Virus record (IMG/VR): IMGVR_UViG_3300009775_000008 | Coordinates: 1-18,848 of that record | Length of the DNA stretch: 18,848 bases | Source of the DNA: a virus | Strand: one strand, 5' to 3' | In this document: positions 10,704 to 11,078 of the stretch, in pieces | How the letters are laid out: each line of letters starts with the position of its first letter | How positions within the stretch are numbered: position 1 is the first letter of the stretch | Made by a program: the position numbers and the translations under genes | Notes under the pieces: model-generated | Told to the model about the DNA's origin: nothing | Seen by the model: the letters and a program-made list of their open reading frames with translations, nothing else | Database searches by the model: none

Positions 10704-11078
10704 TTACCCTTGCGTTAAAGACCCGTTAAATTCACGAAGTGCCAAAGGTAAATGAGAACATAATTTCATAGTCCTTTCAGATGGTTCAACACAGACCGCA
10801 GTAATTTGATTATCTAAATCAGGTTCGACAAAGATAGTATGTCTGAGATCATAGATCTGAAATTTTTGAATAAACTTTTTGAGTTCTTGCTCGTCTTGTA
10901 CAGATAAGAAAATGAGATAATTGGAATTTGTATTCCATTCGCGAGCAATAGAAGGATGTTGATGTTGGAAATCAATTGCTGCGTGAGCAGCTTGTACAGC
11001 CTGAATTCCGGGGGCTAAATCTCGTCTTGTAATGACGATAAGTTTTGAATGAATCTAGTAATAAAATGGTTTTTTCAT
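10704..11078 (-). CDS. PTH2-like protein whose frame contains TAG at codon 8 (candidate readthrough by the CUA tRNA); paralog of 4635..5195
   Basis: Minus-strand read: ATG AAA AAA CCA TTT TAT TAC TAG ATT CAT TCA AAA CTT ATC GTC ATT ACA AGA CGA GAT... The frame then runs open for 116 more codons to TAA (10704-10706). The product is MKKPFYY*IHSKLIVITRRDLAPGIQAVQAAHAAIDF...TIFVEPDLDNQITAVCVEP... It has the PTH2-type motif (VITRRDL...IQAVQAAHAA). There is no in-frame ATG after the TAG, so a conventional ORF is missing from the track. Confidence 0.5.

Follow-up and report, generated by a model that had tools for sequence, protein, structure and literature searches.

The window analysed here is an 18,848-nucleotide (nt) stretch of viral DNA (IMG/VR record IMGVR_UViG_3300009775_000008, positions 1 to 18,848). 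Its minus strand carries two elements that form the subject of this report: a gene for a protein resembling peptidyl-tRNA hydrolase 2 (PTH2), interrupted at codon 8 by an in-frame amber codon, and a gene for an amber-suppressor transfer RNA, tRNA(CUA) (Table 1). The first-pass annotation of the window had described an ATG followed by KKPFYY, a TAG and a further 116 open codons up to a TAA, and this description is exact both in the sequence and in its translation. It had also placed the suppressor tRNA about 0.7 kb away; the exact figure is 696 nt past the gene's stop in the downstream direction, and both genes share a strand. The tRNA has the anticodon loop CUCUAAA, a short variable loop and discriminator base A. 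We refer to the early in-frame TAG as the gate. The leader of seven codons in front of it is unusually long for the family, in which the TAG is usually codon 3–5. A megablast search of the locus against GenBank phages returned no match, and a promoter and terminator scan of positions 9400–11400 was uninformative.

Directly after the gate, the domain begins on the minus strand with ATT CAT TCA AAA CTT ATC GTC ATT ACA AGA, and beta strand 1 (LIVITR) opens four residues past the TAG. The earlier statement that no ATG follows the TAG fails when taken literally, since one ATG lies near the C terminus (the M of ...ERTMKLC...), but it holds in a narrower form: no ATG, GTG or TTG occurs between the TAG and a TTG at position 10975, around domain codon 27. 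The complete domain is therefore unobtainable from a canonical start. Initiation at this TTG would give an open reading frame (ORF) of 53 amino acids (aa) and would remove the invariant residues R10, Q21 and H24 along with strand 1 and helix 1, in which they lie.

Table 1 Features of the window and of related loci (L numbers denote individual viral loci).
Feature	Position	Strand	Composition or evidence
Amber-gated PTH2-like gene	10704..11078	minus	ATG + 6 leader codons + TAG (codon 8) + 116 sense codons + TAA
Leader MKKPFYY	11058..11078	minus	ATG at 11078-11076, then AAA AAA CCA TTT TAT TAC
In-frame TAG (amber gate, codon 8), followed by ATT	11055..11057	minus	Sequence; equivalent TAG in 78/80 viral loci
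PTH2-fold domain, 116 aa	10707..11054	minus	AlphaFold2 model, Foldseek, profile versus PDB
Terminal stop TAA of the gene	10706-10704	minus	Sequence
tRNA(CUA), amber suppressor	9936-10008	minus	ARAGORN and Rfam, 68.9 bits, top-scoring tRNA in the window
Two small ORFs between gene and tRNA, 110 aa and 54 aa	10054..10534	minus	ORF list
Ungated paralog, 186 aa, phrog_3668 'hydrolase'	4635..5195	minus	BLASTP, PHROG
Domain X, joined to PTH2-like domain	L108 (pT24) 3331-3915; L119 (RAS14) 1958-2467; L136 (XacN1) ORF364		
Domain X, separate gene	L088 3213-3773; L099 9409-9987; L112 21001-21576		

The PTH2-like motif noticed in the downstream product was borne out by profile searches, in which the product matched Pfam PTH2 (PF01981) with 34.1 bits (E = 3.5e-8), above the gathering cut-off of 23, and phrog_1866 with E = 2e-16. 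A profile of 43 homologs matched Pth2 chains in the PDB (E = 1.9e-7), and an AlphaFold2 model based on 43 homologs reached a predicted local distance difference test score of 91.7 and a predicted template-modelling (TM) score of 0.85. The top 14 Foldseek matches in the PDB were all Pth2 or Bit1 structures (TM score 0.56–0.77 on the query), the best being AF2095 (3erj, TM 0.77), followed by MJ0051 (2zv3), human Bit1 (1q7s) and Sulfolobus Pth2 (1xty). Canonical PTH2 enzymes use as catalytic residues the Lys of a G-K motif and the Asp of a D-A-G-x-T motif. When the profile was aligned to AF2095, the G-K lysine fell on a position that varies, being I in the window and Y, A, S or Q in other homologs, and D-A-G was replaced by an invariant E-P-D. 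Because the canonical catalytic motifs are replaced, we name the protein PTH2-like rather than a Pth2 enzyme, and its biochemical activity is uncertain for the same reason. Judged by sequence, the product is a PTH2-like protein of a divergent, phage-specific clade (1,359 clusters at 50% identity, E ≤ 1e-10), a placement that assumes no canonical activity; it may hydrolyse an ester bond at a tRNA 3' end.

The gene is maintained by selection. Against two close relatives we counted 4 synonymous and 0 non-synonymous differences (L026) and 14 synonymous and 8 non-synonymous differences (L027), which indicates purifying selection; codon 2 itself differs synonymously in L026 (AAA/AAG). Among close relatives, Gln codons 38 and 91 swap between CAA and CAG, and the TAG at codon 8 is invariant.

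We then asked how the gate is distributed among viral relatives. A first scan of viral contigs gave 21 loci, 20 of them with ATG, a few codons, TAG and the domain. A second scan, run with an alignment query and 10-kb flanks, gave 80 loci out of 230 hits, at 48–99% identity and on contigs of up to 675 kb; 78 of these have the succession of ATG, 1–7 codons, in-frame TAG and domain, and they collapse to 63 distinct genes. This layout is far beyond chance. The first-pass annotation had suggested checking whether leader and TAG position are conserved across homologs: the TAG position is, while the leader sequence itself varies (MK, MT, MTH, MKDT, MKET, MS, MKKPFYY and others). Of the 63 genes, 41 have the TAG as codon 3; in 14 it is codon 4 and in 6 codon 5, and the 2 genes with TAG at codon 8 form the window's lineage. 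The gate codon is TAG in 78 of 79 readable loci, in AT-rich genomes where TAA makes up about 80% of stops. The same architecture occurs with TAA in L064 (IMGVR_UViG_3300035208_009193, 675 kb), which reads ATG AAA GAA ACA TAA ATT TAC and has no tRNA within 10 kb of the gate; if this contig carried a tRNA(UUA) elsewhere, gate and anticodon would have changed in a compensatory way.

The TAG is followed by ATT in 37 of the 63 genes, GTA in 7, GTT in 6, ATA in 3, ACT, AGC and AAC in 2 each, and CTT, ACG, ATC and AAA in 1 each. The base following the TAG is a purine in 62 of 63, which the conserved Ile or Val alone could explain. A purine after UAG favours suppression, and very early stops terminate inefficiently and are cheap to abort. 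The first pass had envisaged that homologs might carry a sense codon for Gln or Trp at the gate. The Q that database homologs show there (P0001 MKKPFYYQIHSK, MKQVNQKL and others) was considered as evidence for Gln and rejected as an artefact, because metagenomic gene callers had translated these genes with genetic code 15 and the DNA reads TAG. Ungated homologs have no conserved residue at the gate position.

In several loci the 5' part of a gated PTH2-like gene runs in frame into an HNH or other homing-endonuclease-like ORF (L039 ~9243, L048 ~9230, L049 ~1715, L052 ~2104, L056 ~3039, L065 ~8809 and L068 ~9178). The PTH2-like part of these chimeric ORFs includes the ATG-x-TAG and extends to the conserved QAVQ..H motif. 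At least L048, L052/L053, L056 and L065 have, a short way downstream, another copy of the gene that is both intact and gated. These chimeras look like intron or homing-endonuclease invasion at the gene's most conserved site.

The gated genes are closely associated with suppressor tRNAs. Of the 63 distinct genes, 56 have a tRNA(CUA) in their locus. It shares the strand of the gene in every one of the 56, is no more than 1.5 kb away in 45 and is often found 50–200 nt upstream or 0.3–1.5 kb downstream; four of the seven genes without one have less than 1.3 kb of sequence on the downstream side. In genome-bin matches a tRNA(CUA) was adjacent in six of six. Beside homologs we found 66 distinct tRNA(CUA) sequences, mostly with the loop CUCUAAA, a short variable loop and discriminator A. 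Ungated members adjoin other nonsense suppressors. In Lak-A1 and Lak-B5 the gene lies about 0.6–0.7 kb from a tRNA(UUA) that is the sole tRNA in 40 kb; in LR745208 a tRNA(UUA) follows 100 nt downstream; L132 has a tRNA(UCA) beside the gene; and L128 has a tRNA with an 8-nt anticodon loop containing UCA (read as 'ttca'). L123, L124 and L129 are ungated and yet sit beside tRNA(CUA). A TAG gate beside a UUA or UCA tRNA was never found among the loci examined, and the gate codon matches the neighbouring anticodon. Since ungated members also adjoin suppressor tRNAs, the protein family is a general companion of nonsense-suppressor tRNAs, and the amber gate is the usual form of its amber-type cassette. 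At one locus (L019) a tmRNA gene lies 1.2 kb upstream; cluster C mycobacteriophages presumably also encode tmRNA.

Overall, these loci define a widespread phage cassette made up of a suppressor tRNA, a PTH2-like protein and sometimes an HD-like domain that we call domain X; most of its carriers are phages in which TAG otherwise serves as a normal stop. The gate is present in cultured phages of at least five host genera. We analysed the complete 234,670-bp genome of Tenacibaculum phage pT24, in which 270 ORFs end in TAA (230), TAG (33) or TGA (7), with helicase, ligase and large terminase genes among those terminated by TAG. The tRNA genes of this phage number just three, a CUA and two Ile-UAU. 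Among its ORFs, the PTH2-like gene (ATG AAA TAG ATA ACC) alone has an ATG, at most eight codons and a TAG that no canonical restart follows closely; its GenBank coding sequence begins at an ATG farther inside and omits the N-terminal third of the domain, which is conserved. Acinetobacter phage ME3 has ATG ACT TAG ATT and, 150 nt upstream, a tRNA annotated as 'tRNA-OTHER anticodon CTA', and Cronobacter phage GAP32 has ATG GCA CAA TAG AAT in a region annotated as several small hypothetical ORFs. ORF364 of Xanthomonas phage XacN1, a fusion of domain X and PTH2-like domain, and the fusion protein of Stenotrophomonas phage RAS14 both open ATG AAA TAG. Cluster C mycobacteriophages contributed 207 matching GenBank records, most of them annotated 'peptidyl tRNA hydrolase'. 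Bxz1 reads GAAGGC ATG TAG GTG ACA, and ScoobyDoobyDoo and Phabba read GTG TAG GTG; all three have a tRNA(CUA) within about 0.3 kb downstream, labelled 'tRNA-OTHER' or 'tRNA-Pyl(cta)' or mis-assigned.

In pT24 at 134215-136332 (L133 34215-36332), BPT24_159 ends in TAG and BPT24_160 starts two codons later in the same frame. Suppression would fuse the two proteins, and the arrangement could be chance or could mark a second suppressor client.

Domain X, about 190 aa long, follows the PTH2-like domain in pT24, precedes it in RAS14 and XacN1, and is a separate adjacent gene in L088, L099 and L112; it is absent from the window. The separate genes open with an ATG, two or three codons and a TAG (MNEA, MSYL and MNT before the stop), although an upstream ATG in L088 would lengthen the leader, and the X-first fusion of RAS14 opens MK before its TAG. 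The domain corresponds to the C-terminal part of phrog_14850, with invariant HDxGKP and RHFPNH motifs. A Pfam search with domain X returned nothing, and its profile gave a weak PDB match (E = 8e-4) to the HD region of a class II A-adding tRNA nucleotidyltransferase. Fusion of X to the PTH2-like domain supports a role at tRNA 3' ends, short of proof. The X gene of GAP32 (L137 ~1500-2050, frame 0) has an in-frame TAG in mid-domain, between ...ISELDTG and GDPVLLEVYG.... In a wider search for early gates in which the first canonical start lies more than 15 codons past the stop, TAG accounted for 83 cases, TAA for 15 and TGA for 10, and only the PTH2-like and domain-X genes stood out. A C39-like peptidase family (ATG...TAG, then Met-rich sequence) was considered as a further gated family and found unconvincing.

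We interpret the locus in the window as a functional gene that would be translated from the ATG at 11078 through the UAG at codon 8, with the neighbouring tRNA(CUA) decoding that codon, and assign this reading a probability of roughly 0.78. Ribosomes would start at the ATG and meet the UAG, which the tRNA encoded 0.7 kb downstream would decode. The PTH2-fold protein would then be made only when, and as far as, charged suppressor tRNA outcompetes release factor 1. The first-pass annotation had left two explanations side by side, decoding of the TAG by the neighbouring tRNA or a non-AUG start just after it; the layout kept in 63 genes, the near-constancy of TAG and the linkage to tRNA(CUA) favour the former, and readthrough at the gate probably occurs. 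The inserted amino acid should not matter, because the gate falls in a disordered N-terminal tail and ungated relatives have no conserved residue there. Since its identity should be irrelevant, a purely regulatory stop would fit, as would the diversity of the tRNAs.

Several observations weigh against this reading. The ungated members beside suppressor tRNAs (L123, L124, L129 and the Lak phages) mean that the gate is not obligatory, and the active-site motifs expected of a canonical PTH2 are not conserved in the product. Comparison of the tRNA(CUA) with 480 other phage tRNAs gave no consistent nearest isotype, and the identity elements A73, G1-C72 and the short variable loop exclude only Leu-, Ser- and Tyr-type tRNAs. 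Other unfavourable points are features that a start behind the gate would account for, as if ATG and TAG bounded a mini-ORF of two to eight codons, the protein were initiated just after it (at a non-canonical ATT or GTT, through reinitiation, or at a GTG or ATG where one exists) and the suppressor tRNA were irrelevant. ATT, the commonest codon after the TAG and that of the window, is a rare but known bacterial start, and GTT or GTA occupies this place in 13 of the 63 genes. The Met1 of the ungated paralog aligns with the residue directly after the TAG, an ATG lies 1–5 codons past it in XacN1 and L127, and in the mycobacteriophages a Shine-Dalgarno-like GAAGG or GGAGG stands 7 nt before the post-TAG GTG, which is the annotated start. 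Initiation after the TAG is plausible in the mycobacteriophages because this element is well spaced before the GTG, and a mini-ORF with downstream initiation is likewise plausible in XacN1 and L127. The mycobacteriophage gate may be vestigial or a start-stop element, and the ATG close behind the TAG in XacN1 and L127 suggests that some lineages may have a gate that leaks or is bypassed. Downstream initiation nevertheless leaves unexplained why the stop is TAG in 78 of 79 loci where most stops are TAA, why a tRNA(CUA) is co-located on the same strand and why TAG is absent in relatives beside UUA or UCA tRNAs. Several genes, moreover, have ACT, ACG, AGC, AAC or AAA after the TAG and no start for 11–78 codons, and a non-AUG start is disfavoured because ACT, AGC, AAC and AAA cannot start. 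We regard this explanation as improbable for the gene in the window.

The remaining unfavourable points concern the genetic code. If the whole genome or a block of late genes used code 15 (TAG to Gln), the gate would simply be one Gln codon among many; there is good documentation of recoded phages with tRNA(CUA) (Borges et al. preprint; phAss-1), public gene callers translated the gene with code 15, none of the 28 genes in the window ends in TAG, and only 18.8 kb of the genome is visible, which makes TAG-containing late genes elsewhere possible. The absence of TAG stops from the window is, in turn, compatible with chance at the TAG usage of about 8–12% seen elsewhere. An in-frame TAG occurs in just one of about 29 window genes, and reading TAG as sense lengthens this gene only. 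About 50 kb of close relatives held no credible second case, the candidates being spurious frames or tRNA regions. Real Gln codons swap CAA and CAG, whereas the TAG is fixed at one site in 63 genes; in the 80 loci TAG terminates neighbouring ORFs at a rate that is low yet normal, and the continuations are short; the 33 TAG-terminated ORFs of pT24 contrast with one gated gene in 270; and described recoded clades have in-frame stops in 26–71% of genes (Borges et al.). Global recoding is thus rejected for the family and unlikely for the window's phage, and we give code 15 a very small share of the probability here. The in-frame stop at codon 8, and the fact that no ORF was called under the standard code, would also be expected of a PTH2-like gene inactivated by a nonsense mutation. 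But 63 distinct genes, carried by phages whose hosts differ widely, share this stop, the sequence downstream of the TAG is under purifying selection and the predicted structure is intact and of high confidence. A pseudogene is excluded by this conservation and selection, to the point where we attach almost no weight to it.

Returning to tRNA-dependent decoding of the gate, what purpose it might serve is speculative, and three options can be outlined. In a negative feedback (option a), the protein would deacylate or hydrolyse the suppressor's aminoacyl- or peptidyl-ester and so limit both suppression and its own synthesis, which would fix the level at which ordinary TAG stops are read through. 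In a feed-forward clean-up (option b), suppression would send ribosomes into 3' regions and raise the peptidyl-tRNA load, and a hydrolase made in proportion to suppressor activity would clear peptidyl-tRNAs and stalled products. As a timing device or licence (option c), the gate would delay a potentially harmful tRNA hydrolase until the phage tRNAs mature. We lean towards a self-limiting loop or a clean-up role as candidate purposes, and the regulatory loop raised in the first pass would be consistent with the data. The fuller proposal is a self-contained circuit widespread in large phages: a suppressor tRNA would license, through a stop at about codon 3, a PTH2-fold and sometimes HD-domain-fused hydrolase of tRNA 3' ends, whose own substrate would be either that suppressor tRNA or what suppression produces. 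It is tentative, and we think it rather less probable than its negation. If it were true, the orphan suppressor tRNAs of XacN1, pT24, ME3, GAP32 and cluster C would belong to a feedback or homeostat module and not to genome recoding, and the module may be an evolutionary seed of full stop-codon recoding.

Elements of this arrangement have counterparts in known systems. In prfB, the gene for release factor 2, an early in-frame UGA provides autoregulation through a +1 frameshift escape, and the product reads the stop. As in prfB, an early in-frame stop would set synthesis by termination versus alternative decoding, with a possible feedback logic; unlike prfB, the frame is unchanged, a suppressor tRNA is needed and the product is a PTH2-fold protein with a putative action on tRNA. 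The lambda bar minigenes consist of an ATG, a few codons and a stop, and lead to peptidyl-tRNA drop-off and dependence on Pth. The gated genes share the succession of ATG, one or few codons and stop. Whereas bar minigenes are stand-alone and may carry any stop, however, here the element is in frame with a hydrolase-like gene and the stop matches the neighbouring tRNA. The product has the same fold as archaeal and eukaryotic PTH2 proteins (AF2095, MJ0051, human Bit1/PTRH2) and significant sequence similarity to them, and differs in the variable residue at the G-K lysine, the E-P-D motif, the linkage to suppressor tRNAs and the amber gate. PTH2 has been noted in jumbo phages, where it was linked to ribosome rescue (PMC7824862), and in the tRNA arrays of cluster C mycobacteriophages (PMC5966550), in both cases with no mention of the stop codon or suppressor tRNA.

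The code-15 phage clades, namely crAss-like, Lak and 'Garnet/Topaz/Agate' (Borges et al., Ivanova et al., Peters et al.), provide the closest parallel, in that a phage tRNA(CUA) is needed to translate a phage gene with an in-frame TAG. For recoded phages there is an earlier proposal that in-frame stops hold back expression, or make it conditional, until the suppressor has been produced (Borges et al.). Their stops, however, are scattered, replace Gln and affect a quarter to three quarters of genes, mostly late or lysis genes. Here they are confined to one family and to one stop at codon 3–8, in phages otherwise terminating at TAG, and the gated protein is tRNA-related and physically linked to the tRNA gene. 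A tRNA(CUA) in a standard-code phage recalls the orphan suppressor tRNAs of XacN1, which has two tRNA(CUA) genes whose targets its authors did not identify; their in silico readthrough of the 18 TAG stops yielded none (PMC5852040). Such a search would miss ORF364, because it extends C termini and the candidate gate is N-terminal.

In our full-text literature search, which covered few subscription journals, neither the gate nor the linkage between PTH2 and suppressor tRNA had been described. What is new is an overlooked cassette; suppressor-tRNA-dependent decoding in phages is known, and the cassette is not a new principle. It offers a concrete candidate target for the suppressor tRNAs of phages without an alternative code. 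The hypothesis is directly testable because ME3 (A. baumannii), GAP32 (Cronobacter), XacN1, pT24 and Bxz1-like phages (M. smegmatis) are cultured. The cassette also exposes a systematic annotation error, with GenBank genes truncated, split or started past the TAG (pT24, GAP32, ME3, XacN1, Bxz1). A stop-gated, tRNA-linked hydrolase is a plausible intermediate toward full stop-codon reassignment, and possibly a compact natural part for suppressor-dependent gene control.

Elsewhere in the window, the gene at 4635-5195 had been called a clear paralog of the gated gene. Paralogy stands (BLASTP E = 3e-9), but the two are distant rather than clearly alike, with 23% identity and different PHROGs (3668 versus 1866). 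The 110-aa and 54-aa genes between the gated gene and the tRNA also come after the PTH2-like gene in L022–L025, in a conserved order; Pfam assigned neither to a family, and any part of theirs in the gate mechanism would be hypothetical. A 14-bp hairpin (AGCATGGACAT...ATGTCCATGCT) at 10014-10048 on the minus strand stops roughly 5 nt short of the tRNA(CUA) 5' end, and could be a terminator or a processing signal between the tRNA and the upstream ORFs. In the window (9522-9869) as in pT24 (L108 2112-2393), the PTH2-like gene and tRNA(CUA) have a thioredoxin gene nearby, and glutaredoxin genes lie near the PTH2-like locus in the Myrna-like mycobacteriophages ScoobyDoobyDoo and Phabba; this redox neighbourhood is possibly a conserved synteny.

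Further features of the minus strand lie farther from the gate. Rfam RF00005 gave weak matches (32–33 bits) at 16011-16080 and 16180-16249 that ARAGORN did not call, and these may be degenerate or unusual tRNAs. Within 14740-15500, about 700 nt at 47–50% GC in a 35% GC genome have no credible ORF and end in a hairpin and U-run near 14760, flanked by an endonuclease-like ORF (14072-14701) and a SiaC-family ORF (15602-15979). This stretch had no Rfam match at E ≤ 1 and a non-significant folding z-score of -0.54; possible identities are a large non-coding RNA and what is left of an intron. Finally, an 848-aa protein (11214-13760, minus strand) has Major Vault Protein shoulder and vault-repeat domains (PF11978, 4e-27; PF17795, 7.5e-13), and a 566-aa TROVE/Ro60-like RNA-binding protein (phrog_850) is encoded at 6876-8576, also on the minus strand, so that genes for two eukaryote-type ribonucleoprotein components, vault-like and Ro60-like, lie side by side with a tRNA cluster in a phage.

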